Of a stretch of DNA of 44,068 nt, positions 1 through 30,876 are shown piece after piece. A program made the translations under genes and the position numbers. Under the pieces are notes generated by a model. That model saw only the letters and a list, made by a program, of their open reading frames with translations. It ran no database searches and was not told the DNA's origin. The stretch is from Folioceros fuciformis (Eukaryota). The first letter of the stretch is position 1. Each line of letters opens with the position of its first letter. The stretch covers positions 62,001 to 106,068 of the forward strand of contig JBNGIO010006060.1 of NCBI GenBank assembly GCA_049999805.1, given 5' to 3'.

Positions 1-2846
1 TCAGAGATCCTCTGTCGTAATGTCTGCATATTTTCAAGTAATAATTTCTATTTTAGTAACCACCACCAAAAACAAAAGGTGTACTTACTTGAACTAGTTC
101 TCACCTTGCAGCTTCCAGCTCGCTGTAACATGAACCTGTACAGTGCATTCCAAACAAGTGTCAAAAGCAGCAGGTAATGAAAGACTGAAGATAGATGGTG
201 CGAAAGTACTATCTGCGTATACAGTGAGGCAAGAAAGCTTACCAAGATATTGTTGTTTTCCATTTTGCTTTTTCGGTGTCTCCCTAAAAAATCACAAGAA
301 AACAGAAAAAGACAAAGGTCACTTCAGCGCTTCCCTGTTACAACTTCAGCTATATGCAGGGCCCCTGACAAACCATGAATTGGTGACAAGCGTGAAGGTA
401 GCCTTTAGCTCACGTACCATATGTGTGCCTCCCATCTGTTGGTGCGACGGTAGAAATTGACGCCCTGAAATTGTGACTTACGGGATTCCATCTTCCTGGA
501 CTTGGGTTGCATGTCTTTTGGTGGGCAGCATTGCCCTTGAGCAAGTGCCACCTGGTTGTCTTGCAGCCAGGTTCTCTCCATGATGGCGTACCTTAAGTAA
601 AACGACAGAGGTCCTGTCCTCTCCGCTGCTGCTAGTGTCGTCCCCGGCAGGCCGTTGAAAAGGTCAGCCGGAAGCCTGTCCCATGAAGACTGATCATTTC
701 CGCCAGGGCTCTCCAGTGAAGTAGCGGCCACGGGAGGCGCGTTGAGGTCGACAATTGGCGTGATCACCTCAGGGGACAGATCACGCCGAGGTGGAGACCG
801 ATCATAGGTTTCTGGAGCAGCTGCCGGTGCCACCTCCTGGTCCACATACCGAGCCTGAAAAGCACACAGTACAAGCATGTGAAGAAACTGCATCCATGCG
901 CGCATATGACAATCTGCATCCTTGCGTACAGTTGCACTCTGCCGAACTTTGATCAAACAGCGCAAAACCAGGAAGTATTGAGGGATCGCTTGCCAGATCG
1001 TGAAATTGAGGAAAACGAGTAATTGACAAACAACAAAATGACAGTCACATTGCACACTGGATCATTATGTCGACGCGATGCCCTGAAGTGCAGCTACTTG
1101 ACGTGCACAACCCCATGAGTTCCACGACAGAGTATGTCATATACCTGAATTCTACATGCAGCTATATAATACAAAGGTGCACAAGCTTGAGAAGAGTGGT
1201 GATACACTCACATTTGAAGATGAAGAGCTTTCTTGGTGTTGTCCAACGTCAGGCCCTGTGGACGAGCTTGGAGCCTACAGACATCGTCGAGGAGCATAAG
1301 AACATCGCAACTGCATCGAGATGCATCGCATCGGGCACCCAGGCAGACAATTCAAGCTTGACGACGCACACACATTCATACAAGTCTTCTATCACCGGGG
1401 TGGAGAACAAGACTGGGCTATGGAGACATTTAGGAATTCCGTCCCAGAAAGTTCGAGATGCATCTTGGCTCACGTACCGGTGGCTTGTTCAGGTCGATTG
1501 CTCTCATGGGCTGGTTCCCCTCGAATCCAGCAGAGTATCCGGACTCGGACAATGAAGCATATGCAGACGAAGCTCTCCTTCTTGGTATTCGCGAAGTTGA
1601 GCGCACCCGATGGTGAGCCCATCGAGTTGGACTCCATACTTTCCCACGGCCATCTGCATGGTTGGGAATAGCACTCGCGTGAAGATGAATGGGTGCTAAT
1701 GCGGTTGTAGGCCTGTCCTTGGCGGCGCCCGCCTGCACAAGGTCTCAGAAAATCAATCGTGGTGCTGCGCTCAGATTGGAGTGGAACTGAAACTGACCAG
1801 GCTTAAAAATAGCTCAGGCGTGAAAGCACGCATTACTTTAGGCTAAGCAGAAAAAGCAGTCATGAATAGCAACTTCCTTCAATTTCCCGTCATGACAGAT
1901 CGAAGAAAAAGCATGGTCATGACGTTAGCCATTTCACGACAGACATGTCCGAGCTTTCGCGAATAGACAGATCAGACGTGTGCTGCAAATACCCAAATCA
2001 CCAGCTGGTCAGTCCACAAACCTTCTCATTTGCAATTGCGTTGGTAGTATGCTTCCTCTTGCGGCCAGCGGCTTGTGGTGACCCTCCTCCAAGGGGCTTA
2101 GGGGCTGTCGCTAAAGGAGGCCCGGATTTGGATTGGCCTAGCTTCAAGGCCCGAGACGTCTTCGTCACTACGCACCGCGCACAGGTCGGGCCAACAATCA
2201 GAAAACGACCATCGTGAGCAGAGCTTTCAAGAGCAATGCAAATCCAAAATCCGATTAAAGTGCGCAGGAGAGAGCAGACGTTGGAGGATTTACCTGGAGC
2301 AGAGGTCGGAGGTGGAGGACCCGCCTCGCGGTGAGCCTGCGGTACGTGCGACGCCCGAGATGTGGAAGGAATGGGCACGGCAGGAAGGTATGGCGGAGGA
2401 GAAACGAGTGGAGTGACAGGAAGCACATGGGGATGTGCTGGTACCAGGCGAAGCTGATTGAAACTGGGCGGAACGAGCAGAGTCGAAGGAAGCAGAGCAA
2501 GCGAGGGTACTGACACAAGCACAGGCTGTGGAGCCCGTGCCGAGGAAGGCTTGCGCAGCAAAGGGCGAGCTCGAGCTCGCAGGGGGGCTGCGTCTTTGAT
2601 TTTCATACCTCGAAAGTCCAGCCTTGGCCTCCAAATTCGAATGCGGCTCCGGTGTCGGGCGATGGCCTCCTCACGCTTCCGTCGAGCTTCCCAAGCTGCA
2701 ATACGGCGATCGTTTTCGGCAGGATGCAGATTCAGGTCCACTGCGGCGTGGAGCCGGGGTTTTGTTACCGGCGCCGCCAAAGGACCCGCTTCAACGAAAG
2801 GAAGCACCACCGGCGCCGGGGGTCTCGATACCCGAATGCGAGCCAT
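1..2846 (-). CDS. Divergent euAP2-type AP2/ERF transcription factor with three DLN (EAR-like) motifs; 3'-partial (gene X, copy A)
   Basis: Manual GT-AG model with concordant phases: 2846-2294, 2167-2022, 1732-1478, 854-418, 283-243, 135-105, 23-<1 (about 495 aa in window). The spliced AP2 repeat reads KSRKMESRKSQFQGVNFYRRTNRWEAHIW|ETPKKQNGKQQYL|GSCYSELEAAR|HYDRGSL, with introns at the euAP2 positions. Motifs: AVDLNLHP, AIDLNKPP, IVDLNAPP and basic GRKRKH. The AP2 exons are secure; joining of the first three exons is inferred from phase and splice signals. Confidence 0.82.
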
Positions 2847-3519
2847 CTTCCCGTCTGGCTATCTGGAGCTGCAGACATCCGAACAGTGCTGTTAGCAGAT
2901 TCTATCGCAAAACTCCTCCTCCTCGTGAATCTACTTACGACAATCCAGCAGAAGGGCGTGGCGAAAGGAATGCGGAGGTTACCTGGCGCTCTCAAGCGAA
3001 CGAGAACCGATCCGGAATGCTGGAGAGCTACCACGAGGAGTGACAGACACCTGAAGCAAGCTTTGGATAAAAGGGAGTAAGCTTTCAACTGCTTTGCTAT
3101 AGCTGGAGACAGAAGGAGGCAACAAGAAGGACTTCGGGCTTTTTTGGTCAGCTGGATAGTCGAATTGCTTACCGCTGAGCCAGAACGGGGCTGGCCGAGG
3201 AATGTCGGGTCGGCGAGCAAGCTTGGACGCTCCAAGAAGCTCGGCGGACGAATGCGATGCAGGACCTCAAGGTCGCTGGCCTCGCGGGGTCTCTGGCTGA
3301 AAGTGAACTGCTTGAGGAAACCGAGGCCAGGGGAGAGTGGGGGGGAGAGACAGGCCAGAGAGAGGGACCAGACGACGACGAGGGAGGTGGAGAGAGGAAG
3401 TAGAGAGAGGTACGAAATTAATCCTGTGGTAAAGCGCCACAGCAAACCCTCACATCACATTACTCTTCCCTTGCTTTTGCTCTTGACAGAGACTGACCCT
3501 CGTGCTCTCCCTTAAGTTC

Positions 3520-3528
3520 AAACCCTAA
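3520..3528 (+). promoter_or_regulatory. Telo-box-like motif AAACCCTAA upstream of gene X copy A
   Basis: Exact AAACCCTAA about 670 bp upstream of the ATG, near a GA-rich tract (3335-3410). Copy B has a similar CACCCTAA near 13898. Short motif that could be chance. Confidence 0.25.
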
Positions 3529-3639
3529 TTGTCGTGACTTGTGACGGGATGATAATCGGCCTGTCAAGTGAACCCGCCTGTCCTTAGCCTCTGAGAATCA
3601 GGCGCCTGAGGGCCCTCAGGCCCTCAGGCCTCAGGTGGT

Positions 3640-5420
3640 GGGGAGAATCTGACGTAACCGACTCCACGTTCCCGGTACTGCGCTCTAAATTGGGTGGACG
3701 CGGTTGAGGGAGCCAGAATTCCCGACCGAGACACTGGTACCCCTAAACCTACCACATGAATCTTCGACTGCCAGACACTGCACTGCCCGAGCAGGCGACG
3801 GGCGGGACAGGCAAGACCGGAACAGGACGAGCGGGTACAGGCGAGGACGGGCTTGGGAATAGGCACTGACATGAGAGACTACCTTCGACGGCACGGCACA
3901 GAGACGGCATCCTCACTGAAAGCCACGCATACGCTGAGCCCCCCAGCGGAATGAAGTAGGCTTCCGCTCAGCATGCGCCCAAGATTCCAGTTCTTGCCCA
4001 GCGAGCCACTGAGCCTGTTTTCTTTTTGTTTGAGCTTACTACACATCAACCCAGTTCGCGCTTTGCCGTCCCGGCCATGTCCTGGCGGGACAGATGAGGA
4101 GCACAGATGCATCTGGTGAGCGACTTTCCCGAGCTCTCCAATGCAAACTGGTGGCAGTCCTATGAGGCATGGACATTGAGTCTTCCAAGGCTGCATTCCC
4201 ACACTCCTTTAAATTTAGAATTCGAGCCATTTCGGACCTCGTCCTTGCAAGCAAAGCGTGTGACAACAGCGCTGCTGGCAATGCTGATTCACATCCGGAT
4301 GTGGTTCCAAGGTTCTCAGGTGGCGGATGGGTGCGGGAGGGAATCAAGCGATGCTGCGAAGAAAGGGAGGTTGATTCCTGGGTCTGGGCTCGCGCTGAAG
4401 AAAACAATCAATTGCGCACTAAAGTAGGAGCAGGAGCAGTCACATCTCAGAGCTTCTTGATTTAAATTGACAAGCCGGGTGGCCGTAACCAGAACCCGCG
4501 CTGCCCAGTGCTGTACACCACTTTAGTTAGAGGCCTGACAACACTCAAGCCTCTGGCTCTGGCAGGGCCCAGCACGGACAACCGCATTCACTAACCTCCC
4601 TTTCAGGCGCACGGCCTCCGCTCAAGTCTGGGGTTTGAGGAAAGGATGAGCTTGAAGGGCGGCAACAAGACAGTATGTATGTATGTATGTCTGTATGTGT
4701 GCATGTATGTCCTTACGCACAGATGTACTCTGTCCAAGAGTCCTGACCCTGGCCCTGGAAAATTGCCCTGAACACTTGGAGTTGCATGCATGACCCTGGA
4801 CGACAGGTGACGCTCAGGCAGGCCCAGCCTACCTGCTGCACTTTGCCTGGAGACTTCAACACCAGCTGACACTTGCAAGTCGCAACTTGCCATTGTAATG
4901 TATGTACATACCTGCTCCTCTCCGTAGATCCGGACTTCCTGCGCATGCCGAGGTGCTGATAACTCACTGTGTCTCCCATGCTCGGACACCGGTTTAGCAG
5001 AACGTGTCATCCCCCATCCCTGGTGGTGCCCTCTACCTGTCTGTGGAGCAGGCGCGGCTAGGTCAGACCGGGAAATTCACGGCCCAGGCTAGGGGAGGGC
5101 TACGCATTGCTGCTACGAGTCGTGACTTCGATTAGTATTAATAAAGCAGACGGTCATTAGCCACTAACAGCAGTTAATATCGGAAGTTAACACGAGAAAG
5201 TAGCTTCAAGCACGGGGCAGTTCATGGCTTTCTACAGAAGACATGGTTGGAGGGCTTTCCGTCACCAGCGAGACGTCTAAATCTGCCCTTCCAGCTTGAC
5301 GTTACTTGAGGAACATAACATGGTGTGTATGATCCATCAACAAAAAGCAACTCTCAACAATATTATCGAACCAGTTGCACCGTTATCTAATCAACAGCAC
5401 TTTATGCCCTTTCACATGCC
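3640..5420. other. Conserved intergenic module of the triplicated unit, copy A (possibly a decayed gene)
   Basis: Shares blocks with 19250-20960: gcaggagc(a/g)gtcacatctcag, tgtacaccactt, gttgcatgcatga, aagtcgcaacttgc, ggctaggtcaga. Shares gagacactgg and gattccagttc with 14000-14700. No reading frame is conserved across copies. Confidence 0.7.
4673..4708 (+). repeat. (GTAT)n imperfect microsatellite
   Basis: gtatgtatgtatgtatgtctgtatgtgtgcatgtat. Confidence 0.8.
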
Positions 5421-5828
5421 TTTATGATTCAGCGCTGTCACTCTTGCACCTGACGGCTCCACTTCAGAATTTAGATTGAGCATTCTGCAATGATCAGTTG
5501 TCCCTAATGTGGGGCCTGCCTCATACGCGAAGGGAGGAAAGACTCAGTGATTATTAGAGTTAAGGCAATCCAGTACTACCCGCTGAAGCCTACAGACTGT
5601 GCAGCCATTCATGCGAGGTCACAAACAAACAGACACTATGGATTAACACAAACTCGTGGAAATAGATTCGAAGTAGGGATCCTACATGCCCTCTTCATGA
5701 AAATGTGTAGCAGCACAAACGTCACCACGCCATGGAAATAAGCTCCTTCAGCCCAGCCGTGGAAAGAAGCTCAGTAAGTCCAGCAATGGAAACAATCTCA
5801 GTCAGACTAGCCTTCTACGTACCTCAGA

Positions 5829-6233
5829 CTACCCGCGACGCTGCTTAGAACCACCCTGTGACTGGCTGGATCTGGCTGCCCCTGCCAGCGAGCCCTGAAG
5901 ACGTAGTTGGTTGCCAGAACGACGAGGTACGTCATTCGGACGGAACACGGATACCAAGGTCGATCCGGGGAGGATCGGAACCCGATCAGAAGCCGTCGTG
6001 GGCGGCGGACCCGGGGCAGAAGTTGCAGTTAGAGCTAGCTGTGCTTCACCAGAAGAACTGTGGGCCAACAGAATCAGCTGCCCCAGGATCAAGAGCCTGA
6101 TATCTACACCTGCCCTTTCCACCGTTTCCACAGGCACCAGACAACGCAATGGTAGCGGTGCAGAAGACTCTGGCTCCGGATCCACACAAGGAAGAGACGG
6201 GCGTGGCGTTTGTTCATCTTTCCCCCTCCTCAT
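5829..6233 (-). CDS. Orphan Pro-rich, disordered protein (gene Y, copy A), 134 aa; may be a pseudogene
   Basis: ATG context (gccATGaggagggggaaag) and upstream sequence are homologous to copies at 15693 and 22448. Peptide PPPTTASDRVPILPG matches SPPTTVLVPILDPG (B) and APPTTSRDPLLL (C). No recognisable domain. Confidence 0.45.
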   Translation of the reverse strand: MRRGKDEQTPRPSLPCVDPEPESSAPLPLRCLVPVETVERAGVDIRLLILGQLILLAHSSSGEAQLALTATSAPGPPPTTASDRVPILPGSTLVSVFRPNDVPRRSGNQLRLQGSLAGAARSSQSQGGSKQRRG

Positions 6234-6899
6234 GGCTATTGGCTAGCCTGTGAGACAAGCCGATCGTGGTCATGAGCACGCAAATTACCAAGCGCTCAGT
6301 TTCACAAGCGCAAACACAAGCAAGGCATACGTTGCACAGCGAGCACAACATCCTTGGAGCTCAGGCCACAAGGATCGAAATGCCATCGCTCTGCAAAGTA
6401 CGAGGATTTAACGCATTGCAACCAGGCCGAATGGGAAGGCGGGGAAGAAGCTCGGCAGCGAGCAAGGCGTTTGCAAACTCCAAGATACTCTTTACCTGCG
6501 ATATCTGTTAGCGCAGTAGTGGCGCCGGCGCCTGGCTCCTTTGTGCTGGACGTTCCTCTGCTACCGTCGTGAAGAAGCTGTCCTTGCTGTCTCTCCGACC
6601 ACCAGGTCAGCTAGCTCTCCCGCCTTCTTTCCCATTTAGGTCTGTTGTGTCACAGCAAACCCAGAAACCGGGGTAACACGGAGACTAATGATTTAACTTG
6701 TCCCACCTAACCCGGGTGAAGGCTGTTCCCGGCTGCCAGGATGTTTAGGCTTTCTATGTACATATTTGGTAGTTATTTGAGCTTTCTATGCCTCTCGCAA
6801 GCTATTTCATCTCTGAAAAAAATATTTGAATTCTTTTCAGCGTGGTTTGTGTTCTGGTTTCACAGCAAGTCTCCATAGCTGTACGCAGGGCCCTCTTTA

Positions 6900-9800
6900 C
6901 CGCTTTTTTCTTCACTCGGCCTTACCACCTTGCTCCCCCAAAGAAAACTCACATGCTGGAGGGAGACCATGCTAGAGGCTGATTTCACTTCTTAAGCTGT
7001 TGGGAATGCCATTGTAAAGCTCTAGCACATTGGATATGGCCCCACATGCGAACGTAGGTGCATTCTTCATAATGAGGATTTGTAAGGGGGGTGGTGCATA
7101 CATGATAATTTGCTATTATGAGGAACTCAAACTCCATATTCTTAGGCCAATTGTTGCATGAGATCCTCATCTCCTGTCCACACTCCAAGCCTCTTTGCAT
7201 CGCAGGGAGGGTCAATGGTTTGAATGTGGATTGCCTAGCCCCACTAAGACCATTCTAAAAAACATGATTAAAAATTATAGTGACTTGTATAACGTCAAAC
7301 ATGAGAAATTTACAAAGGGGGAATGTCATGATCCTCTTAGGAAGGGGGTAGACCTTCTTGATGAAAAAGACACCCTTCTTGAAATAGAAAAAATGAATGG
7401 TGCTTGTTAATCACATACCCTCTTCCTTGCCTACGAAAAGAGTGAAACATGAATTAGATGAAAACTAGTTAGCATGCAACGTAGGGAGAGGGCGCCAGCC
7501 GAAAGGACATGCATATTGCAACACCTTGCTTCACTGACACACATTATAGACCATTTTGGATCACAAGGGTTCTTGAAGTGAAGCTAAAGGCGCAGAGGCC
7601 AATCTTTGTTAGTGTAGTGATACAAGACAGAGCACACTAATGGATTCGAGGGGAAGTATGTCAAGGAATACGTCGTGTGAGGGAGGGTGATTGACGAACG
7701 AGGGCGTTCTAGGCCGCATGGGTGGAAATCTGTTTACCCTAAAAATGTACAAGAAATATATTTGAATGATATAATTATCTTGTACTATGGTTTCAACTTA
7801 ACCGCATGGAAACACTTATATGCAGCGGACAAGACGGCCATTAGAGACAAACTGATTGCCTCGTGTGGGTGCATCGAGCCACCAAGGAGATGGGTTGCGA
7901 TGATAGTGAAGATAACAATGATGGTGATGTTTACATAGACAATGTATGATGATGTTCTGGATGAAGTCGTCAATGATGCTTGCGAGCTATAGTTCAAAAA
8001 TTAGGTCATAGGTAGTAGTAAACAAAAATTGTCCTGTCCCTGTGAACCGTTGAGAAAGGGTTGGGATTTACATGTTTTCATCTACTTTGCTGTAATCCAT
8101 TGTGAAAGAAAGCATCCATAGTAGGCAACACTCGCCTTGTGAAAAAGATAAACCCATCTGTATAACAAGGTAGTCACCATATGCGATATGGCTGACCATT
8201 GTTATTGTCTACCAATACACCATGGGGGTACGTACATATCAACACAAGCAGTATGATTAGATGCTAAAGGCAATGGATGTCGGGCGGCACCCACGCAATG
8301 TCTCGGGCCTAAAGATTCCTAGTGTTGAACGTGTATGTGATCTAGTGGTACGTAACCTTGTAAGTGCTTTCAGAAACCTTTCCCTTCAACATGTGATACA
8401 TATCCCCAACGTTGATGTTGGGCTTCACCATCGTTCCCCCTTAATGAAGAAGATATTGTGAAGGTGATAGTGGGACATTAGAGGCAATTGTAACACAGCT
8501 CTCATCACTCACGCTCACTCAAAACCCAGACGGAAAGAAAGGAAGGAGCGGCTTACATGGTTTGGCTCATGGGCTCAAAACAAGGAGATTGATGCATTTC
8601 TTACAAATCATCGACCATGCATGCAGACACCGGGCTATGAGAATGGTAGGATTGGCTAGCACACTGACCTTGTTTTCCGGCGTTCATTTCTGACAAAGGT
8701 TTAAAAAAGCCCTAGCTAACATCATCGTTGACCTCAATACAAGAATATTGTACATTTGCCACCCTTCATGTATATTCCTCCCCTTGCAAATTTCTCTTGT
8801 TGTCATAGGTGTTTATCATTGGAATTAATAAGAGAAAAGGTGTGCCACCTTTTCTAAAGAGCGACCACACACCACCTTTTCCAAAGAGCACTAGTGTGTT
8901 GAGACTCTTCAGAGCAAAAGTTCTACTCATGAATGCATTTTAAGCAAATACAAATGAATCTTATCTTTGGCTTATCTAACCTTTTTTTTTTGCGAAGAAA
9001 AAAATTCATGTTAAAAGAACAGCTCAAGGCTGCAGTAGGGATTGCCAAGGAACAACATTAGTAATTGGATTATGAGTTAGTGCTTAAAGCTAGCTGTAGA
9101 CTGAAAGAAAAAAACTACTCTTAACCTATACTAGTATCTGAGATGTACCCCACCTCCGGAGTGGGGGGAAAGACTTTACCTGCCCCACGGACAAGAGTGA
9201 TTCCACTGTCTACTATGCCCAAGAAAGCCAGCTGATTTCCACTCTTTCCACTTGAACTTGTTAGGAGCAAAGGCACGAATGTTGTCAGCAACCACTAGAG
9301 CTTGTTCCCAAATATGCTGTAGGATTTGGAGAGTGGGCCGTAGGGTTTTGTGCGAAAGAAAAAACAAAAGAAGGGTTTAAGGAGAGACCCGACTTATTTC
9401 AGACGCTATTAGTTCTTCCTCTGACACACATTCTATCAAATTCTCTATGAGGTTGCACTTTTGCACCTTGCTAAGTGTCACAATATGGTCATCTTCTCTA
9501 GTTTATCTCGTTAGCCTGACAGCTCTAGCAATTCCTTTCTTAGCAATGAGGGACTTTTCTCTAGTATGCTAGACTATGTTATCGGTGATGTTCATCTCGT
9601 TTCAGGCATTTCCATGTTGAATACCTTTGACTTAGACTACATGGAGTCTGTGGGCGAGCAGGTATGGTACCCCTACTAGACACTGCTCACATGTATCGTG
9701 GCCACATCAATCCCACAGTCGTTGTAGGCTTCCTTGGAATCGCTCCCTTCGAGCCCGGTGGTCAGCTTCCCCCAACTACGTCTATTGTTCACCTATGACA

Positions 9801-11600
9801 GTCATCACTCTCAATCACATACCACCTACCAATCCTACAACACATCCAGTCAGTAGGAGGACACCATTCACTCAGCTAGAAGGACCCTAATACACTCCCT
9901 ACCGACTTCTACCTCCCTACACTAAATACCCCTTGTTCAACAAGACACCCTACGACACCTTTCTTAACCCAACAATCTAGCTGCTCTTCGCACTACATCC
10001 AACAACCAACAAGTTTTTCCTTGGGCTGGTTGCTGTGTGCTTGCACCTGTTAGTGAGAACTTCCAAGGAGTCTTTCCCTAAAGTCTACCCTCAAGCCAAT
10101 AGTCTCGTAGGTATTGCCACACACCTATGGCAAATCAACTCGCACAACAACCATTCACAAGAGAAGCAACTTGCAAGGGTGCCCATGGAAGAATTTCAGC
10201 CCTCTGCCAAGCACTACGACCACTACAACTGTAGCCACAACTAGGCGTTGTGTTGGCACACGACCGGCAATGAAATCCCTATGCTTAGTTGAGCATGAGA
10301 ACTCACCATGAGAAGAGTGCAAAATTGTGGTGGTTCATTTCTTTGTGTAGCCCCTTCTTATAGGAGAGATTGACACATGAACCCTCCCCTACATATACCT
10401 AGGTGGTGGGCTACCCTCCTCTCACACTAGCCACCACCAACTTTAACTACGCATACCTACCAAGAGACTAAGACCTACCAATAATTGCCAAGGGAGTGCG
10501 CCCCGCTGAAAATTGGGATAGTGAGCTCCGCCATAGAAGATTCTTAGACCCCCCCTTCCAAAAGGGAGTGGCTAGGACTAATCCTGAAGGCAAGTAGAGT
10601 CAGTGGGCTGAGTCGCTAGGCCCCCTTCATTATTGGAATCCGTCTTCTCTTAGGTCTGCCAGCTTCCATCATACCTTTTTCTGCATGAACCTCTTGGGAC
10701 ATCCCTTCATTACCACCTACTGGTCTACTTGTTTTGACCCTTTGGAAAAACCATTGCATCATATTTTTATTCCCCTTGCTCTAGAGGCCAAGGACTTCTC
10801 AAGACTTATCAAAACTTGCACAAAGGCTTATCATAGTCACAAGAATAAGTTTCTCCCTCTTTCTTTGGTGCTGGCCTTTTTTTGGCAGCATGCTTATGGA
10901 CGTGACAAAAAGCTTTGGCAAACACGATTTACCAAGGAAAGAGTTTTAGTGGATGTGGTTTATGCGGCAAAAGAGCTTTGGTGAATGCAGTTTATGTGGC
11001 AAAGAGCTTTGGTGAACGTAGTTTGTGTGGCGAAAGAGCTCAAGTGAATGCAGTTGAAAGGTCGTCCCACCAGAGCAAGTTTTGTGGCATCAACAATTTC
11101 AGTGGCATCAATAGGTCCAAATCCAAGTATGCTGTGTATCATATCCAACCATGATATTCTAAGGGTTGTAGGTACTGAGGTGGTATTCATAGGGGCTAGT
11201 CCCTTCTTTTTCTTTCAGACCTCTTCGGATCTCTTTTTCTTCTTGTTTGAGGTAGATGGGGATCTCCATCTCTTTTAAATAAGTTACACAAAGTGCTTTA
11301 GAGCATTACATACTACCGCATGACACACATATGGATGTGGACTAACCAATATATGTATCGAGACAAATAACAATTAAAAATCGCTGTATAGTAAAGGTTG
11401 ACAATGGTAGTCTAAGATGGTCATCTACGGATATCAGCCAGCATGCATCTACGTACTCAAACTTAAACGCCAAAACAAAAATGGACTTACACCACGATGA
11501 ACCTTTAGAGGTTCCAACACTCTCTCACAACGGTAACACGCGCAGGTCATACTGGCCAGGATACAAGGAAAATCAGTACTCGAAGATCGCGACTAAGTAA
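6900..11600. mobile_element. Degenerate, probably transposon-derived insertion between units A and B
   Basis: Drop in GC, only short broken ORFs, internal short tandem repeats, and no counterpart in the other units. It begins where homology of X copy B to exon 4 of copy A stops (about 11630). No termini or TSD identified, family unknown. Confidence 0.4.
10950..11057 (+). repeat. About 33-bp imperfect tandem repeat (3-4 copies)
   Basis: ggcaaaagagctttggtgaatgcagtttatgt / ggcaaagagctttggtgaacgtagtttgtgt / ggcgaaagagctcaagtgaatgcagttg. Confidence 0.75.
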
Positions 11601-11629
11601 AGACTAACACAACCCTTGTTTAAGAGCGT

Positions 11630-12524
11630 CGTCCACATGTATCAGCCTGCATGCACCTACGTACCAAGGTTCGAAGGTGAGATCTCAATCTCGTTACGTA
11701 GGTCCATCCTACACGAGATCCTCTACTTTTCTAGAATAATGAGGGTAGACTTGCATTTGAGGCAGACGAACTTAGCTCTAGTGTCCCTCAATTAAGCCAT
11801 CTCCGGACGATCGTGAAGCCTGCGCACATTGTTGACGAGCATAAGAACCTTGGAACAAGCAGGCGCGGAGGCACACGTTACAAGAAGCTTAACGCTGGTG
11901 CTAGTCTAGAGGCTTACGTACCGGTGTCTTCATAACGTCGATCCATCTTATCTGCTGATTTCCCAGGTTGGCGAGAGCTGAGGATCTAGACTCAAAATAC
12001 TGTGGCCTCTGCCAACATTACCGTGGCATCTGCCATCGGCCATATCTTCCTACTGATACTGTGACATCTGGCCATATCATCCCCGTTATTGTGTCCCCTA
12101 TGACCCTTCTTCCAGCTGAGGAGCATGATTGCGCCACACAATTGGACCCAATATTCCCCCACTGTCAGGCTCGCAAGAGAGAAAAAAAGGGTAGGTGAGG
12201 GGGGGTGTAGCGTCGTCCTTATTGCTGTTGTTAGCCCCTGCCTGCAAGCATTCAATTAAGCATCAAATGACGATGCGCACATGGGGGACTGAACAAGTGA
12301 ATCCGGTTAAAAATTGGTCGTCAAGGCAAACTTTATTTTATTATGAGGACAGAGTCTTCCAAAGCAAGCTGCAGTGAAGATGCATTGTCATGAATTGTTA
12401 GCCATTTCAGGACAGGCTATTGAGCTCTAAGTTAGAGGTAAGCTTAGGCAAATGTGCAGCGAAAAGTGTGCTGCGTAACGCCAGGTGTGAGTTCACAAAC
12501 CTTCCTAATGCCATTGCCCGCTTG
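11630..12524 (-). pseudogene. Decayed remnants of exons 3-4 of gene X copy B
   Basis: Homologous splice sites are retained (donor after 12501, acceptor before 12241, donor ccg|gtacgtaag after 11922, acceptor near 11646). The exon-3 frame has a stop, AIDLNKPP has become WIDVMKTP, and no AP2 exons follow. Confidence 0.65.
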
Positions 12525-13598
12525 CTAACGCTTCCTCTTGCGACCGGGGTCTGCTGGTGATCCTCCTTCAACGGACTTTGGACCACTCCTTTCAGGGCGC
12601 CCGGAATACCTTCCGCCTGGGAAATGCCCATGGGAGCTGCTTCTCCTCACTGCGCAGGTTGAGCAGACGTCCAGCAAGCAATCATGCCTTCAAGTGAAAT
12701 GAAAATCCCAAGTCGCTTGAAATTCGCAGGATGAGAGGCAGCAGACATAGCAGGCTTTACCTGGAGCAGCAGCTGGAGGCGGGGGACCCGCTGTGGGGTG
12801 AATCCACTGTATCTGCCTCGGCGGAAATGTGGGAGGTAAGTGCCTCGGCTGAAATGTGGGAGGTAAGGGCCTGGGCGGAAATGTGGGAGGTAAGTGTCTC
12901 GGCGGAAATGTAGGTAATATGTGACTCGGCGGACAGGTGGGTGGTCCGTGCCTTGGCGGATATGTGGGTGGAACGGGCCCGACAGGAAGGTATGGCTGTG
13001 CAAGAGCGTGTGGAACAAAGGGAAGTCCAAGGGGATGTGCTCTTGGTCCATGCAGCGGTCTGCCATTGGGCGCAGGAAAGGAAATCGGAGGACCGGACAG
13101 AGTGGGGGGTTGGGGATGCACAAGCATAGGTCTAGGATCAGGCACAGCCATAGGCGCAGGCCCAAGTAAAGACGGAAGAGTTTGCGGTTGCAGAGGCAGA
13201 GAGAATGGCGGACGATGAGGCATCCGCACATCCAGGGGCAGAGGGCCACGCACAGGCTGTGGAGGACGAGCAGGGGGAGCCCTGGGCAGAAAAGGGCGAG
13301 CAAAAACTGGCGCCCGACCTTCATTTGTGTTTCGCGTACCTTGGTGGGATATCCTGTCCTTTCTGATCAGCTGCCGCACGCCCCGAGGTCGGGTGAGCAC
13401 CATTGCCGCTCCAGGCTCCCTTCCAGACTCCCGTCCAGCCTCCCAAGCAGCAATGCGGCTATCGTTTTCGTCGGGAGTCAAATTCAGGTCCACTGCGATG
13501 TGGAGCCGGGGTGATGCCTTCGCCACAGAACCAGCTTCAACCGAAGGAAGCTTCACCTCGCCACGCCCCGGGGTTCGTGACGGACTGCTTTGAGCCAT
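12525..13598 (-). CDS. AP2-less paralog of gene X (copy B): EAR-like motif, Pro-rich repeats and basic C-terminus, 320 aa
   Basis: Exons 13598-12761 and 12649-12525 use splice sites homologous to copy A (gctccag|gtaaa; gcag|tg). N-terminal PRLHIAVDLNLTPDENDSRIAAWEA; ends GGSPADPGRKRKR* where copy A continues GGSPQAAGRKRKHTT. Confidence 0.62.
12817..12932 (-). repeat. 27-bp coding tandem repeat (about 4 copies) encoding PPRHLPPTF-like units
   Basis: Plus-strand unit ctcggcggaaatgtgggaggtaagtgc at 12817, 12844, 12871 and 12898; absent from copy A. Confidence 0.9.
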
Positions 13599-13999
13599 CG
13601 TCCCCCTGTGTAGATATCAGGAACTGCAGGCAGCCCAACAGTGCTGTTAGCGATCGCAATCGCAGCATCCTCCGCAGAATAGCTATATTCACGAGCAATG
13701 AACAACGAAAGCAGTACCTGGCAGCACTCCCAAGCGGTAGCGTTCACGAACGTCAGATCTGGAATGCTGTGCTACAACGAGAATGGGAAGGAGCTTGAAT
13801 CAGAGCTCGAGGAGAGCGCGAGGGGACAGCAAGGAAGGAGACATGTCGAAGAGTGAGCTGAGAGGAGAAAGGGGAGAGAGGAAAGAAGGTAGGTTCACAC
13901 CCTAATTCTTTTTACCGGTTACTGTGAACCCCAACATGGTCTGGACATTTCTGGTCTCTGTGACTCTACGGGAAGTACATCTCACATCTCCTGTGTCCA

Positions 14000-14700
14000 T
14001 TGCACTCGGCTTTGGGTGGTTTTCGAGCAACCGGCAGCGACAACGAGTTTGTCTGCACTGTGATGCGCCTCGGTGTTCTAGGGGGGCTCCCCCTGACCAC
14101 ACAGAGACACTGGGGCGATTTACTGCAAGCATATCGGGTCTTCCAGACAATGCCGTGCCGTCGACGGGCATGGACTGGCACGAGCGGAACAGGCCGGATT
14201 TGAGAACAGCGCCAACAGGGACATTGAAGCTCCAACGGCAGTGCAAATGATTCCAGTTCGTCCCCAGAGTGCCACTGAGCTGGTCTTTTCACTACACACC
14301 AAGACCCGCTCGCGCATTACCGTCCCGTGACATCCTATCCACTCCGTGTAGTGACCTCGGAATCAACGAGCTCAATCCCAGGCTTCCCCACGCAAAGGTT
14401 CTGACTGGTGAGCAGTCTTCCCCGTCTCTTCTAAGAAGACTGGCATACCGCATATATATGTGGGTAGTTATGTACATACATGGACAGAGCGGCTCCCAAG
14501 AGCCCCACTTCCAACGCCTTCAAGTCTAGCATTCCAGCCATTAATTTGTGGCCTCGTCCTTGAGTTCAGGAACGTGAGAACATTGTTGCTGAAAAAATGC
14601 GAGTTCATAACCGGATGTCCCTTAACATTCGTCCATGATCAGTTGTCACTCTTGCAGCTTGTGGTTCCAGCCCGAAACTGGCATTTATGCAGTGCGAAAT
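14000..14700. other. Conserved intergenic module, copy B (shorter, more diverged)
   Basis: gagacactggggc...ccagacaatgccgtgccgtcgacggg and gattccagttcgtccccagagtgccactgagc match 3729-3800, 3983-4015 and 19346-19411. Confidence 0.55.
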
Positions 14701-14998
14701 GCTCAGTTGTCTCCAATGTTGTGGCCCTACGTTCCGGAGGGATCAGCTTCAGTGATCAATTTCAGAGTTAAACTGCAACCCAGAACCAGCCCTTGGAAAC
14801 TGCAGACTGCGAAGGCCTTCATGCCGAGGTCACAATTGAGCAACCACCACAGATCCAGGCAAACACTTCCAAAGCAGGGACCACATATGTTTTCTTGAAA
14901 AGGTGTGGCAGCGCTAGCCCCCACAGCAGGTCATAAAAACAAACTCAGTGGGCTATAGGCATGTACCTCCAAAACTTTCTTGTGCTGCCCGAGGCTGC

Positions 14999-15693
14999 TT
15001 ACTCCGCGTCGAAGCTGCCTGCACCGATCCAACGAGGTGCGTCGCGTCTTCGTGGGAGCCATGGTTCCAAGGTTGACGGCGATCCCGGCAAGAAAGATGG
15101 ACCGGATCCGCTGGCCGGATCCGGATCACGTGTGCCATCATCCTTTGCCGCACGGTCATCCTCACCCGGATCCGGATCACCTGCGCCGTCATCCTCTTCA
15201 GCAGGGCCATCCTCACCCGGATCCAGAATCGGAACGAGAACAGTTGTGGGCGGGGAGTCCGGGGCCGGATCGTTATCAGAATCCTGTGGTCCAACAGAAG
15301 CAAACGGAAGATCATGGCCAGGCCAGCAAAGGTGGCTGGAGGTAGTATTACCGCTGCGACACTCCGCAGAAATGCCAGGGGAAACCAAAGCAATCTTACC
15401 TCTGGGGACGAGCTCGCGCCCGTCAAGAACATGCTGTGGAACAATTTTACAACGTCGAGATTAGCATACGCCCGCAACCGCCCTTGTGCAACCGGTGCTT
15501 CTTTCACCGCGGTACCTTCGCCGTCCGGTACCTTCTCCTCCGGTATCTTCTCCTCCGGTGCCTTCTCCTCGGGTACTGGTCGCTCCTCATCCGGCAGAAT
15601 CCGAATGCTGGTGGTAAACGTCCTTGGCAGTTTCCCTCGCCTCAGTCGCCGCTGTCGTTCAAACCAGAGTCGTGTAGCTTTCCTCCTTATCAT
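14999..15693 (-). CDS. Orphan acidic, Pro-rich protein (gene Y, copy B), about 192 aa, two exons
   Basis: ATG at 15693; a phase-0 intron at 15399-15284 (gag|gtaag ... ccacag|gat) joins the two ORF-track frames. Contains PEEK(A/I/V) x3, a 51-bp duplication (DPDPGEDDRAAKDDGTR-like) and DPDPASGSG, which matches DPDLASGSG in copy C. The intron is inferred. Confidence 0.5.
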
Positions 15694-16539
15694 GACAGCT
15701 CGCCTGGGAAACAAGCCGAGGTCACGAGTACGCAAATTTCCAAGCTCTCAATCTCGCGAGCGCAAACACAGCTGGAACAGACGGTGCAAGGCATGCTCAC
15801 ATGTGCGGAACAACCCTGGAACTCGAACCACACACGGCAGGATGAGAGCCCAGCGCCATGGCTCGTCAGAGTAGGAGGAATGGGCAACACATCGCTACCA
15901 AACCAAGGTCGGAGGCGCGGAGGTAGCGAACAAGGTGTTTGCAACTTCGCCTGCAGTCAGCAAGCACCCTTGCAGGCGGAATGCAGTGTCAAGAAGAGTG
16001 CAGAGCAGCGGCTTCTAGCCTGCGCACTCCAGCTCCCCACGTTGGCAAAGAACTCTGCTGCTGTCCGTGCTGTCGCTGCCTCCACCAGCTCAGCTCTGCC
16101 CTTACTTCGTCTCTTTGATGACAGACCAAAAACCCCAGAACCCTCCATTGTCGGAGTGTCGTTGAGCCGTACGGGGAGCCGTCCTCTCTGACACATGTCA
16201 GCCTTCTACCCCCGCGGACTGCAAAGCTGTTTTCTACGCATCCTCCTGGGGCATCCATCCTGGGTACGTGTGTTTTCACCAACGACAGCATAGTAGAAAG
16301 CTATCTATTTTATTTTTATTTTGATATCAGTATGCAATACCTATTAGAATACATACTTAAGATCTTTTACAATTATTGAATAACACTCAAGTGTTATTTG
16401 TAACTAACAAACAATCTCAGCAAACATATGTATATGTAATTACTTATGTTCTCGCTAAAAAAGCTACATATACTCTATATAACATCAATAACCTATGCCA
16501 ATTGTTAACTCGAAGGAGATGAACAAGATACAGCCACTA

Positions 16540-16985
16540 TTGAGGTGAGGAGATGAGGAAGATAAGTCTCGATTAAGCGAGATAAGTCTCCATTAAGCAG
16601 AAGAGACGAGGAAGATAATGTCAAAGGAGATGAGGAAGCTAAGGTCTCTATTGAGGTTGAGGTGGAGTACATGGAGACAAGGAAGATAAAGTCTCAGCTG
16701 AGGTCAGGGTGGAGCACATGAGAGATGAGGAAGATAAGACCTCTCTGAAGGTTGAGGTGGAACACATGGAGACGAGGAAGATAAGGTTTCTATTGAGGTC
16801 GAGGTGGAGCACTCTATTGAGGTTGAGGTGGAGCGTATGGAGACGAGGACGATAAGGTCTCTGTCAAGGTTGAGATGGAGCACTCTGTTGAGGTTAAGGT
16901 GGAGCACATGGAGATGAGGAAGATAAGGCTTTTGTTGAGATCAAGGTAGAGCACTCTATTGAGGTTGAGGCTCAGGTGGAGCCAT
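16540..16985. repeat. Complex purine-rich tandem repeat (gaggtggagcac / gaggaagataaggtctc modules)
   Basis: Repeated ttgaggttgaggtggagcac and ggaga(c/t)gaggaagataagg modules inside an AT-rich block (16290-18100) that is absent from the other units. Confidence 0.8.
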
Positions 16986-17448
16986 TTCAAGTAGAGAAAG
17001 TTTGTGGAGGTCATTGTTAGAGAACTCAAGATAACATAGCTAGTAACCTCTCCAATATGACCTTTACAATTAACAGGGAGGTGGGTCTACTGATGGTAAC
17101 AATTATGCAGACAATAGCTGTAGAGCTCGATGACCCATGGATATTGCAACAAAGGCTTGAGGTCACTTGAAAGCATGGGCCAAGGGTAGCACCGAATTGT
17201 ATTTTCGTGCATCAATATGGCAGCACTACTTGATTGGTTAGGTAGCACAAAGAACTAGAGCTAGTGATTGCTTCAAATGCACTATAACATAAAGTAAACA
17301 TATATATTAACCTTAGCTTACATACAAGAAACCAAAATCTAAACCTAAACATATGTTAGTTATGCTTCTTGAAACCATTCCAAAAATAAATAGTTCTCAT
17401 CCATGCATCGGGTAATTGATGGATTCCCATAAGCTTGATATTTATGAC

Positions 17449-17469
17449 ATATATATATATATATATATA
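17449..17469. repeat. (AT)n microsatellite
   Basis: Perfect AT run of about 10 units. Confidence 0.9.
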
Positions 17470-17796
17470 GAAAGAATAAAAATATGTTAATAGTATAAAA
17501 TATGATTAAAAGGAATAATTAATTATTCTATTCAATATTAAGTCTGATATGTATATCTGAAAAAGAGATTAACAAAAGCTGCCATGAAACGTTGACCTCT
17601 TTCGATGTTCAATAGATGTGAGCATACAAAATTCAAATTTATGAGAGTTTCTGATCGGGTGGAACTTGATGTCTACACATTTTTGAGTAATGTGTGAAAC
17701 TCGATGTCTACATAGTTTCAATTAGAATGCCCAAGTCCTAGAAAAACTTGATGTCTAATGGAATACACAAACCTTAGAAAACATGATGTCTAACAC

Positions 17797-17892
17797 AATG
17801 CTTCAGCATCAAAAAACTTCAATGCTTCAGCATCAAAAAACTTCAATGCTTCAGCATCAGAAAACTTCAATGCTTCAGCATCAGAAAACTTC
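17797..17892 (+). repeat. 24-bp tandem repeat x4 within a more degenerate aacttgatgtcta array (about 17660-17985)
   Basis: aatgcttcagcatca(a/g)aaaacttc four times; flanks repeat aacttgatgtcta and gaatgcgcaagcctt. Confidence 0.9.
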
Positions 17893-18146
17893 ATGGCTAG
17901 TAGAATGCGCAAGCCTTAATAAACTTGATGTCTTGTAGAATTCACAAGCATTGATAAACTTGTCTAAGAGAATGCGCAAGCCTTAAAATGGCTGCAGAAC
18001 AAATGCAGAATCTTAAATAATTGGATAGATATAAACCTTTCTACATCCAGATCGTTACAAAATGAACTGAAGATAAGCATCCGGAAGGCGTATGGGATAG
18101 CACGAATTTCTGAGGTTACTCCCATTATGGAAGCTTCATTTGATTT

Positions 18147-18395
18147 CTACTGGAGGGCAGCGTTCTCGGGAGTAAGCCGCGCAGGTGAAGATGCAAGGTC
18201 GCGACGATGCACAGCCTCCCAAGCTGCAATGCGGCGATCATTTTCCTCCACGCTCAGGTTCAAGTCCACTGCCATGTGGAGCCGAGTTGGTGCAGGCGCA
18301 ACGGGACCAGCTTCGTCCGAAGGACTCGTCACCGCCTGTGGGACTGCCATGGCCCCGCTGACTGACGACAGCGACGACGCCTCGATGCTAGCCAT
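18147..18395 (-). CDS. 82-aa EAR-motif-only paralog of gene X (copy C); candidate microProtein or truncated pseudogene
   Basis: ATG at 18395 in a context similar to copies A and B. Encodes MASIEASSLSSVSGAMAVPQAVTSPSDEAGPVAPAPTRLHMAVDLNLSVEENDRRIAAWEAVHRRDLASSPARLTPENAALQ*. No splice donor was seen before the stop, and AT-rich repeat DNA follows. Confidence 0.55.
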   Translation of the reverse strand: MASIEASSLSSVSGAMAVPQAVTSPSDEAGPVAPAPTRLHMAVDLNLSVEENDRRIAAWEAVHRRDLASSPARLTPENAALQ

Positions 18396-19249
18396 GTTCC
18401 GAGATCCCCAATAGCTCTCGGAAGCTGCAGCCGGACCAGAAAGGCTGTTTTCAATTGCTATTGCAATCGCAATCTGAATAGCAAGCCTCCTCCTCCGGAT
18501 CACTGTACTCAGGAGCGAGGGGCAAGGAATTCAGTGCCGGCAGGCCTCCGAAGCGCTCACCAACAAATCCGCGATGCTGTACCACCACGAAAGCGAGGAG
18601 AAGTCTAAAGCAAGCAGTGGAACGAAGCCAAGACTAGTCAGCTGCTGGCTATGGTTCGGCGTAACAGGCTGTGGTTAGTCGGGACCTTGAGGTAGTCAAC
18701 GGAGAGCAGAGATTGGCGAGGACTGTAGGGTACCAGTGGTGATGAGCAACCTTAGAGAAAAATGTGGAAGGTTGGAGCCGGTCGTTGTAGTCAGGTGAGG
18801 CAGGAGGAGCTTGGGCCGCGCGGGAATTCGCTGTGAGTCAGGGTCGGTATTGGTCAGGGGCAGAGCTGAAAGACACAGCGCATGGGGGCTCTCAGGAGAC
18901 ATCGTCAAGAGAGAGGACAGAAGAGGCCCGAAACTCCACAGTAAAATGACACTTCACTTCACTTTTACCGTTGCGGCTCTTTCATATTCCAGAGCGCTTC
19001 TTCCACCCTGTATGGCTATTTTCTTATTTACTTATGATCTCCTTTGATCCTCCTAATGTCCGACTTTAATACCAAATGTTTAAATTATTCCTGGGTTCTG
19101 TAATGGACTGGTTAATGGTAAACAGCTGGGTAAGTTGATTCCGGGATGTGCTTAAGGCCTCCGATTGAGGGGAAAGTTACCTCACCCCGCCCCCACGCCG
19201 ACGAAGCAACTGGGATGGACCACCTTGGGCAGCGGGCAGCGGGCAGGAT

Positions 19250-20960
19250 AGGCCGATGACGCAGTTGGCCGGTACTCTGCGCCGGCGAACATGGTTGGCG
19301 ACCGGTGGGGGCAGTTGGGGGTTGCCCGCTGTGACTGATCGGACCGAGACACTGGGGCCCTTAAAACCCACAGCACGATTGGCCGACTCCACTCTGCCGT
19401 GCTGTTGACGGGATTACAGGGCGCAAGCTAGCTGAACGGGGAGGGCTATGGGACAGGCACCAAGAGGAACGGCCGTAACCAATGGCAGGCATTGGGAGGC
19501 AATCACCAAGGATGTTCCAAGCCCTCAGTGTGACGCAGTAGCCTTCCCCTCAGCATATGCCAAAAAATCAGAGTTCGTCCGCGTCGAGCCACCGAGGGGG
19601 TCGCTTTGCCGTCACGTCTCTACCGGGGCCCTGTACCGGCCGCCGGACGAAGGAGCTCATCTGCAACTCCTCCCACGCAAACTGGTATGTGTACATTTCT
19701 ATTGGTGAGCGGCTCTCCCCTGCAAACCATGCCATACCCCATACGTAAGTGCGTACGTTCCCCCCATGGGCAGAGGGTGCGCTCCAACTCCTTCCGATCC
19801 AGAGGTCCAGCCACTCTAGGCCCCATCCTTGAGTTCATCGCTGCTGATGAAGCAGGTTCACATCAGGATGTGGTTCCAAGCACTTCCTTGGAAAGCAATC
19901 AAGCGGTGGTGCGCAGAAAGAGAGAGTGCGGGCTCCCGCATGCATACGAGTAATTATGTACGCACTTGAGGGCGGGCAGGAGCGGTCACATCTCAGCGCT
20001 GCTTGATTTTAAAATGACAAGGCGAGCGCCTGTAAACAGAGCCCCGCGCTGCCCTGTGTTGTACACCACTTAAGAGGCCTGGCTTTGGCGGGGGCCAGCA
20101 CGGCTTGCCGCATTCATCAACCGCGTAGCTTCTAGCGCTCTGCCACCACTCAAGGCAGAGTAGTTTGAGGAAAGGATATGCTTGAAGGAGCTGTCGACCG
20201 TGCTCTGTCCAGGAGGCCTGCCCCTGGTCAAGTTGCATGCATGAAAGTACTCTGGGCAAAAGCTGAATCAGGACATGTCCGTCGGTTGCCCTGGCCCCTG
20301 CTCCCGTCCTCTGTCCTCTGTCCTCTGCCCTTTGCCTTCTGTCCTGCCCTGCCCTCCGCTGGGGCCCTGTGGACTTGAGCAGCGGCCAGCCATTGCAGCA
20401 AGTCGCAACTTGCAATCGCCAGGGAAGGATCCAGCTCGCAAGGTCCGGATATCCTACCGAGGTGCTGATGTCTCTCCGTGCGTCTGGTTCTCGGGCACCG
20501 GTTTTGCAGACCACGCTTCCCCGATCTCTGGTGCTTATACCTGTCCAGAATCTATGTTGTATGTATCGGGGTACAGCGGCTAGGTCAGAGGGAGTGCAAG
20601 GCAGTGCAGGGCTGCGCATTTCTGGTACTGTATGATTTATGCCTTCGATTAATAACATCTACGAAGTAGGAGATGGAATTATACGTCCGATAGCTGCCTT
20701 GGCAGTGGCCGCCGTGAGCTCACGCTGACTCACTTCAGCGATTGAGGCAAGGGGGCGCATGGGTAGAGTTCTCAGCTTCTACGACTAGAGACGAATTTCA
20801 ATAGCTCTTTCGGTCACCAGCGTGCGCCTAGATCCTACGCTGACAGCCTCACATGACTTCACGCACATACATTGTTTGCGTAACTGTCAACCCAAAAACA
20901 AAGAGAAAAAAAAGACAACTCGACAGTGCATTGCACCTTTTATCTTATTAACTAGACTTC
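19250..20960. other. Conserved intergenic module, copy C
   Basis: Colinear similarity with 3640-5420; contains a (tcctctg)n run at about 20307-20330. Confidence 0.7.
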
Positions 20961-30715: not shown

Positions 30716-30876
30716 CGTAACTCGTTCATATCATCAGTGTGAAAGAGCGGGAAGGACATGTCAGCAGAGGAGTCGCGCACTGCGGTCTGGAAAAATCCGA
30801 GGGAAGTTCCCTCGTGAAACTTCGAATACTTTTCAATGCCTTAACGCTCACATTTGAGATAGCCAATCACGGGGTA

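Follow-up and report, generated by a model that had tools for sequence, protein, structure and literature searches.

A tandem family of one AP2-type gene and two truncated paralogs sharing an extended EAR-type motif in Folioceros fuciformis: candidate EAR-only decoys that are hard to separate from old pseudogenes

Introduction

A 44,068-nt stretch of DNA from Folioceros fuciformis, hereafter the window, contains three related copies of a 24-residue peptide motif built around DLNL, which are labelled A, B, and C. Motifs of the DLNxxP and LxLxL types, known as ERF-associated amphiphilic repression (EAR) motifs, recruit co-repressors of the TOPLESS (TPL) family, and truncated paralogs of transcription factors can act as microProteins. 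Copy A belongs to a gene that continues to an AP2 domain, whereas B and C are truncated. Codon comparisons demonstrate that the motif core has been under purifying selection at the peptide level across the tree of the three copies. It is quite possible, though short of probable, that B and C are EAR-only decoys that compete for the co-repressor. Such a system is plausible, yet it is hard to separate from a pair of old pseudogenes.

Conservation of the motif in the three copies

All three copies are read from the minus strand and fit RLHxAVDLNLxxxENDxRIAAWEA, in which 19 of the 24 residues are invariant. The five variable residues are, in the order A/B/C, A/I/M, H/T/S, P/P/V, A/D/E, and R/S/R. 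Comparison of the window with itself by blastn pairs A with B at E=4e-33 (2676-2919 with 13428-13673), B with C at E=4e-21, and A with C at E=3e-10, so the copies are homologous and do not resemble each other by chance. Seven of the 19 invariant residues differ in codon between copies (CTG/TTG and AAT/AAC at two residues each; CGT/CGC, GCA/GCT, and GAA/GAG at one each), and the start codon and a GCT second codon are common to A, B, and C. A sequence-only reading of this DNA had proposed three paralogs that share the motif and differ synonymously at its conserved residues, and both proposals are borne out by the blastn matches and the codon alignment. Its remark that the flanking sequence barely aligns applies to C and to the proteins of A and B (about 32% identity). 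It does not apply to the DNA of A and B, which is colinear in blocks of 66-80% identity (1260-6318 versus 11805-15770). Apart from the motif, A shares with C the upstream blocks listed in Table 1, so the C unit extends well past its motif. On these alignments, the three copies are products of a tandem segmental triplication.

The EAR consensus applied here is LxLxL or DLNxxP, as worded in passages of PMC8126959 that cite Kagale et al. (2010). DLNxxP is found in A (DLNLHP at residue 37, DLNKPP at 313, and DLNAPP at 375) and in the protein modelled for B (DLNLTP at 37). A strict LxLxL was not found in A or in the B model.

Selection on the motif core

Substitutions were counted by the Nei-Gojobori method in a three-way codon alignment, in which the 24 core codons were set against the alignable flanks. 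The ratio of non-synonymous to synonymous change (ω) in the core is 0.33 for A-B, 0.21 for A-C, and 0.18 for B-C, compared with 0.7-1.0 in the flanks. Fisher's test on the non-synonymous deficit of the core relative to the flanks gave p = 3e-4 (A-B), 2e-5 (A-C), and 2.5e-6 (B-C). The proportion of synonymous differences (pS) is 0.29-0.48 in the core and 0.45-0.59 in the flanks (p 0.38-1), and the synonymous divergence (dS) is about 0.36-0.45 for A-B and about 0.63-0.75 for A-C. Gene conversion was considered as the source of motif identity and rejected, because the core is no less diverged at synonymous sites than the flanks are.

The core tree leads to the same deficit when the flanks are left aside. 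It carries about 10 synonymous and about 10 non-synonymous changes, where 76% would be expected to be non-synonymous (P=0.009). On the three-taxon tree, the dN/dS values of the core branches are 0.081/0.239 for A, 0.038/0.120 for B, and 0.078/0.514 for C. The B branch has about 2 non-synonymous changes against a neutral expectation of 6.6-9.5 (P 0.04-0.004), and the C branch has about 4 against 19-28 (P<1e-3). If a clock is assumed, C's own lineage accounts for 67-83% of the C branch, and 16-19 non-synonymous changes would be expected in that part alone (P 5e-4 to 4e-5). These counts strongly support retention of the motif by selection on the branch of C, and retention on the branch of B is moderately supported. 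Over the tree as a whole, the core does not evolve neutrally. The sequence-only reading would have counted B and C as ordinary decaying duplicates if their branches had evolved neutrally since truncation, and the selection seen here may in part predate the truncations; orthologous loci by which to date these were not found in any collection searched.

Conservation of the tract for a DNA- or RNA-level reason, as a regulatory element or an antisense open reading frame (ORF) and not as a minus-strand peptide, is hardly credible. Plus-strand ORFs over the motif are open in all three copies (2458-2895, 13219-13593, and 17968-18414), as such an explanation would allow. In a six-frame comparison, however, the minus-strand peptide frame has 19 of 26 residues invariant versus 10-16 in the other frames, has no stops, and is alone in having a low pN/pS on all pairs; the best antisense frame has a pN/pS of 1.10 for A-B. 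An antisense ORF as the selected product was rejected on this comparison. Gene A is also transcribed from the minus strand, and Rfam and tRNA scans of the window returned no match.

Table 1. Positions of the motif copies, their host genes or frames, and associated features (window positions)
Feature	Position	Strand	Details
Motif copy A	2685-2756	minus	RLHAAVDLNLHPAENDRRIAAWEA, 24 aa; DLNLHP (DLNxxP) at 2721-2738
Motif copy B	13437-13508	minus	RLHIAVDLNLTPDENDSRIAAWEA
Motif copy C	18213-18284	minus	RLHMAVDLNLSVEENDRRIAAWEA
Gene A	1-3300	minus	expressed, spliced; continues past the window at base 1
Gene A exons, 5' to 3'	at least 3171-? (5' untranslated region), 2983-3048, 2294-2868 (ATG 2846), 2021-2167, 1477-1731	minus	from X1 junctions
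Gene A exons, continued	1211-1273, 417-853, 241-282, 105-133, 1-23	minus	from X1 junctions
Gene A second DLNxxP	1478-1495	minus	DLNKPP, residues 313-318
Gene A third DLNxxP	732-749	minus	DLNAPP, residues 375-380
Gene A basic cluster	2049-2066	minus	GRKRKH, residues 219-224, exon 2
Gene A AP2 domain start	417-470	minus	FQGVNFYRRTNRWEAHIW, from residue 468; continues across introns as ETPKKQNGKQQYLGSCYSELEAARHYDRGSL to the window edge
Copy B exon 1, coding	12761-13598	minus	ATG 13598, 279 codons + 1 nt; includes motif 13437-13508
Copy B counterpart of A exon 2	12525-12649	minus	in A's frame; ends ...GGSPADPGRKRKR, then TAG 12525-12527
Copy B remnants of A exons	11733-11993	minus	of 1477-1731 (11911-11993) and of 1211-1273 (11733-11848)
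Copy C ORF	18147-18395	minus	82 codons; ATG 18395, TAG 18147-18149; motif at 18213-18284
Blocks upstream of C	19836-20545		match upstream of A (4267-5041); self-blastn
Neighbour gene N2	14237-16120	minus	between B and C; spliced, expressed; 5' limit approximate

Gene A, a spliced AP2-family gene

The exon structure of gene A comes from one sequencing run, X1, which over positions 1-20000 gave 9 contigs with 12 junctions. The kind of the run is a guess in its record; its contigs are spliced and thus RNA-derived. Cover is absent from 17 of 30 bins and from all introns of A, which argues that it is transcript-specific and not DNA background. Gene A is defined by 9 of the 12 junctions, and all 12 read CT..AC on the plus strand, that is, GT..AG on the minus strand. 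Both gene A and the neighbour N2 are spliced in this run. The joined exons of A give a coding sequence of 516 codons that runs without a stop to the window edge. The basic cluster GRKRKH looks like a putative nuclear localisation signal, and the GGSP..GRKRK island around it is conserved in B.

The AP2 domain of gene A is cut by the window edge at base 1. Pfam PF00847 matches the unspliced exon alone at E=0.17, with 12.6 bits against a cut-off of 33.3 and with profile positions 2-20 of 54 covered, the remainder of the domain being split by three introns and the window edge. The sole match of this AP2 start in the Protein Data Bank is WRI1 (7wq5_A, E=0.74), and the similarity is thus to a double-AP2 protein. 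By eye, the spliced continuation fits the AP2 consensus pattern YLG...EAAR.YD. So gene A reads as a member of the AP2 family whose N-terminus bears an EAR-type motif, below the Pfam cut-off in the window-limited sequence, and it is a predicted TPL-recruiting repressor. A six-frame scan of the window for AP2 hallmarks gave two matches, both in gene A at 417-470. With the AP2 exon of A as query, tblastn found A alone at E<1, besides an unrelated 18-aa match at E=0.82, and blastn with the exons of A found nothing around B or C that corresponds to its AP2 exon. The earlier statement that only A continues to an AP2 domain thus holds inside the window.

Gene A, in which an AP2 domain follows an N-terminal motif of the EAR type, resembles AP2-lineage repressors such as wheat Q and Arabidopsis AP2, whose N-terminal EAR motifs recruit TPL (PMC5787848). 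For wheat Q, an AP2-family protein, the text of PMC5787848 describes an N-terminal LDLNVE that is needed for TaTPL binding and repression. Unlike the wheat Q type, A carries three DLNxxP motifs, the first extended to 24 residues with a helical ENDxRIAAWEA tail, and its AP2 domain is divergent, cut by the window edge, and below the Pfam cut-off in the window.

Copy B

Copy B has counterparts of four exons of A, of which 1477-1731 is present only in part. By blastn, A exon 2294-2868 matches 12735-13651 and A exon 2021-2167 matches 12481-12605. B retains the acceptor of the exon that holds the start codon, the start itself (ATGGCT), and the donors of its first three exons. Every indel between exon 1 of B and that of A is a multiple of three. 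Within this exon, a 27-nt unit (roughly PPRHLPPTF) repeated in tandem and in frame about 5.7 times (12814-12968, minus strand) enlarges the proline-rich region of B relative to A. When spliced as in A, the modelled protein has 320 residues, 24% Pro, and a C-terminal RKRKR. In 4000 simulations of neutral substitution at d=0.1-0.2, all 279 codons of exon 1 remain free of stops in 16% to 4% of cases. Exon 1 is intact while the downstream exons have decayed, and therefore the truncation of B is not very recent. X1 cover is zero in bins 12007-14007, which include the B region, and is uninformative on B expression.

Exon 1 of B could instead serve as an alternative first exon of gene A, with the donor after 12761 joined to exon 2 of A (2167), so that the motif would be conserved in a full-length AP2 isoform with a longer N-terminal region. 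The two donors are nearly identical (CAG/GTAAAG in B and CAG/GTAAAT in A), each of the two exons ends in phase 1, and joining B to A in this way gives 611 codons without a stop. None of the 12 X1 junctions links B to A, however, and exon 1 of A is joined to its own exons of the 5' untranslated region. B also retains its own exon 2 acceptor and the frame up to the TAG, and 10.6 kb with an expressed-looking neighbour block lie between B and A. The same explanation would leave C unaccounted for, as the C motif is followed by weak GT sites, most of them in the wrong phase. Taken together, these points make an alternative first exon quite improbable.

Copy C and the motif helix

Downstream of the short C frame, the DNA is AT-rich and full of stops and tandem repeats, and homology of the C region to A was not found beyond about codon 65-82. 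The AT-rich spacer directly downstream contains tandem repeats at 16560-16970 (periods 20-95 nt) and 17796-17986 (24-35 nt). These repeats may mark the rearrangement that truncated C.

An X1 contig at the C locus (18403-18870) ends 8 nt upstream of the C start codon. The bin 18010-18676 has a mean depth of 3.34, of which this contig accounts for about 1.6, and therefore further contig sequence presumably lies within 18010-18402, over or adjoining the C frame.

AlphaFold2 was run on C with a three-row alignment and gave a mean predicted local distance difference test score (pLDDT) of 62 and a predicted template modelling score (pTM) of 0.29. Residues 49-68 (VEENDRRIAAWEAVHRRDLA) are predicted as a helix, with a pLDDT of 86 for 51-60, and the rest is predicted to be disordered. 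The DLNL core immediately precedes this helix. The sequence-only reading had described ENDxRIAAWEA as a helix that may be an undescribed interaction surface; the segment is indeed predicted to be helical, with moderate confidence, and has no detectable relatives, while its role as a surface is what we infer. A predicted complex of the A N-terminus with C scored 0.00, which, in a run made without controls, weighs neither way.

The helix also underlies a strict microProtein explanation, in which it would self-associate and B and C would bind protein A itself, giving non-DNA-binding or altered complexes without acting on the co-repressor. ENDxRIAAWEA is the best-conserved part of the motif, is predicted to be helical, and lies outside the EAR consensus. 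Moreover, known microProteins arise from duplicated transcription factor genes and can carry a TPL-binding motif, as reported for miP1a/b in the text of PMC4807768. On the other hand, no dimerisation domain is recognisable, Pfam assigns no family to the three motif-bearing ORFs, the protein outside the helix is predicted to be disordered at the scores given above, and N-terminal pairing is not known among AP2-lineage proteins. This explanation is improbable.

Relatives in databases

A profile built from the N-terminal regions of all three copies was used to search 1.84 billion representative proteins. No relatives emerged, as the two matches at E<=1e-3 are both unrelated repeat proteins. In a word-indexed search with the N-terminal 65 residues of A among longer proteins, none of 243 candidates reached E<=1, and with the AP2 exon of A none of 799 candidates reached E<=0.01. 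The ESM Atlas gave no usable match for C. As a plant control, the rhamnose-synthesis gene of the window (37221-37664) recovered 2649 of 3094 candidates at E<=0.001. Among the 120 control matches listed, identity is 61-88% and none is near 100%; those listed include angiosperms, Physcomitrium (80%), Diphasiastrum (82%), and Adiantum (82%). The collection thus includes plants but not the source species' own proteins. Because no relatives were found while the plant control passed, the extended motif appears to be lineage-restricted, as far as these protein searches reach. RIAAWEA and AVDLNL do not occur in the 10 of 116 papers listed by a full-text literature search, and the matches to IAAWEA were text noise.

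Proposed mechanism

The favoured explanation is that a segment carrying a fast-evolving neighbour gene and an AP2-family repressor gene underwent tandem duplication twice. Copy A is still whole, transcribed, and spliced, with its N-terminal extended EAR-type motif, two further DLNxxP motifs, the basic cluster, and the AP2 domain. Copy B has lost the DNA-binding half through a TAG in exon 2, decay of the later exons, and absence of the AP2 exons, and C is reduced to its 82-codon frame. Selection on the peptide has kept the 24-residue motif across the tree, with moderate support on the branch of B and strong support on that of C. B (about 320 residues, with the motif, the proline-rich region, and RKRKR) and C (82 residues) would still be translated as EAR-only proteins and would bind the same partner as the N-terminus of A, most likely a TOPLESS-family co-repressor. 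They would then compete with A and other EAR repressors for that co-repressor by titration, acting as decoys, and the helix formed by the conserved ENDxRIAAWEA would add to the area of contact. The array would in this way work like an EAR decoy or adaptor, the two roles that the sequence-only reading had raised for B and C. In our reading, the RKRKR of B would favour nuclear import, and C would be small enough to diffuse in.

In its fullest form, the proposal would hold that two selected and translated EAR-only proteins, B with a nuclear-targeting tail and C of 82 residues, compete with their parent for the co-repressor, that the ENDxRIAAWEA helix is an undescribed extension of the EAR interface or a site for a second partner, and that the locus is a self-contained repressor/anti-repressor cassette. 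We consider that full form unlikely.

Decoys or pseudogenes

The most serious alternative would make B and C ordinary unprocessed pseudogenes or gene fragments without present function, whose motif was protected only while the genes were whole or stands out through sampling noise over 24 codons. We regard this as a real possibility, although a doubtful one. Several observations weigh against the decoy explanation and agree with pseudogenes. Past the TAG in exon 2, all frames of B are broken, the second EAR motif now reads IDVMKTP, and there is no AP2 exon, so that this part of B has the typical appearance of a disabled duplicate. C ends as a stump of 82 codons, and AT-rich repeats follow. Both copies therefore carry the disabling lesions by which unprocessed pseudogenes are recognised, and blastn found no counterparts of the exons in the 5' untranslated region of A in either of them. 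Gene A, like B and C, has flanks with an ω near 1. Conservation was itself the ground for choosing the core, whose tree has only about 20 changes in total, and the dS of a branch depends on 2-4 changes. Retention in B is only moderately significant, for the motif (P 0.04-0.004) as well as for the open frame (0.16-0.04). The constraint on the motif may in part be older than the truncations. VDLNLSV of copy C fits neither DLNxxP nor LxLxL, since it has no P at position 6 and V instead of L at position 1; the EAR-like core claimed for all three copies by the sequence-only reading is thus upheld for A and B and fails both strict forms in C. X1 cover at the C locus is unstranded and without a junction, and its extent over the frame is derived from bin depths. 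Translation of B and C and TPL binding by any copy are inferred.

Other observations weigh against pseudogenes. Synonymous divergence is large (core pS 0.29-0.48), yet 19 of 24 residues are the same in three copies. C's own lineage shows about 4 non-synonymous changes where 16-19 would be expected. The ATG and GCT second codon are kept throughout, exon 1 of B is intact beside decayed exons although its truncation is not very recent, and transcript contigs lie on the C locus. As a lead only, VDLNLSV of C resembles LDLNVE of wheat Q, which passages of PMC5787848 call atypical and functional.

Comparison with known systems

According to the text of PMC8126959, LxLxL binds the N-terminal part of TPL and DLNxxP binds its WD40-2 part. 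The same source describes the Ustilago maydis effector Jsi1, which has a DLNxxP motif, binds WD40-2 of TPL, and is proposed to interfere with endogenous DLNxxP repressors. Jsi1 is a precedent for the mechanism only, being a DLNxxP protein without a plant DNA-binding domain. It is a secreted pathogen effector and not an endogenous paralog.

A microProtein is defined in PMC4807768 and PMC7534434 as a small single-domain relative of a larger protein that acts via a compatible interaction domain. Among them, miP1a/miP1b arose from duplicated genes and bridge CONSTANS (CO) to TOPLESS, binding CO via a B-box and TPL via PFVFL (PMC4807768). Like these, B and C derive from duplicated transcription factor genes, lack the DNA-binding function of the parent, and have a TPL-type motif, and as paralogs of A they are kin to a larger multi-domain protein. 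In contrast to the folded, parent-binding B-box that the source describes, B and C have only a short motif and no recognisable domain. The B model, at 320 residues, is not small as microProteins are, whereas C has 82.

The Arabidopsis AtAUE family consists, in the account of PMC11644342, of small EAR-only proteins of otherwise unknown function that repress reporters. As in B and C, the EAR motif is their sole recognisable feature. They differ in having LxLxL motifs and are not presented in PMC11644342 as truncated paralogs adjoining a DNA-binding repressor. Sequence similarity of B or C to AtAUEs was not found in any protein search run.

Unprocessed pseudogenes in tandem arrays are likewise partial copies in which a stop comes early, frames are broken, or exons are lacking, as in B and C. 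B and C differ from them in the non-neutral motif core, in the open exon 1 of B with its indels in multiples of three only, and in the transcript contigs at C.

Neighbouring genes and other features of the window

The gene N2 contains a 215-aa acidic low-complexity ORF without a Pfam family. Blocks of its DNA recur upstream of A (5404-5624 and 6218-6318) and upstream of C (20979-21032), so N2 belongs to the repeated unit. A protein-level match of its ORF to the sister copies was not found, and N2 is a fast-evolving, or possibly non-coding, neighbour. The X1 depth maximum of the 20 kb, 19.3 versus 2-5 elsewhere, falls in bin 4670-5336, within a block common to the A and C units (4430-5041 versus 19976-20545). 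The ORF overlapping this bin has no Pfam family, and the scans for Rfam and tRNA matches are negative here as in the rest of the window.

No Pfam family was found in eight intervening or neighbouring ORFs, on which ground a transposon-carried exon was rejected, although this is a weak test. The two ORFs with families are TPR and RRM genes elsewhere in the window. These are a TPR-repeat exon at 25969-26337 (plus strand; TPR_11, E=9e-7) and an RRM-type exon at 30877-31218 (minus strand; E=7e-4). A 400-N assembly gap (21721-22120) lies between GC-rich open frames rich in Ala, Gly, and Glu, and here the C unit may lack assembled sequence at its upstream end. The stretch 23925-25100 is a satellite-like tandem array, strongly AT-skewed, in which periods of 28-110 nt are nested. 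A second local duplication of about 66-78% identity joins 26980-27597 and 30413-30992. The rhamnose-synthesis gene is of the NRS/ER type (RmlD-like, PF04321), with two large ORFs at 37167-38329 (plus strand) that are 80-88% identical to land-plant proteins. At 39908-41080 (plus strand), two adjacent long ORFs of 182 and 207 aa look retroelement-like by eye, with no Pfam match.

Significance

Duplicates of this partial tandem kind are common. Should B and C be non-functional, the locus is an ordinary decaying tandem array, and it would mainly warn that a short conserved island in an old duplicate can be the trace of selection that acted before truncation. If the decoy system is real, truncated transcription factor paralogs as regulators, already known as a class, would occur here with only a short linear motif retained. 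Functional B and C would be a case of a transcription factor regulator born by partial duplication that keeps a short linear motif instead of a folded domain. The microProtein concept would then be broadened to motif-only decoys of the TOPLESS hub, and the locus would offer a natural extended EAR variant, DLNL followed by a helix that looks amphipathic, in which co-repressor recognition could be studied structurally.

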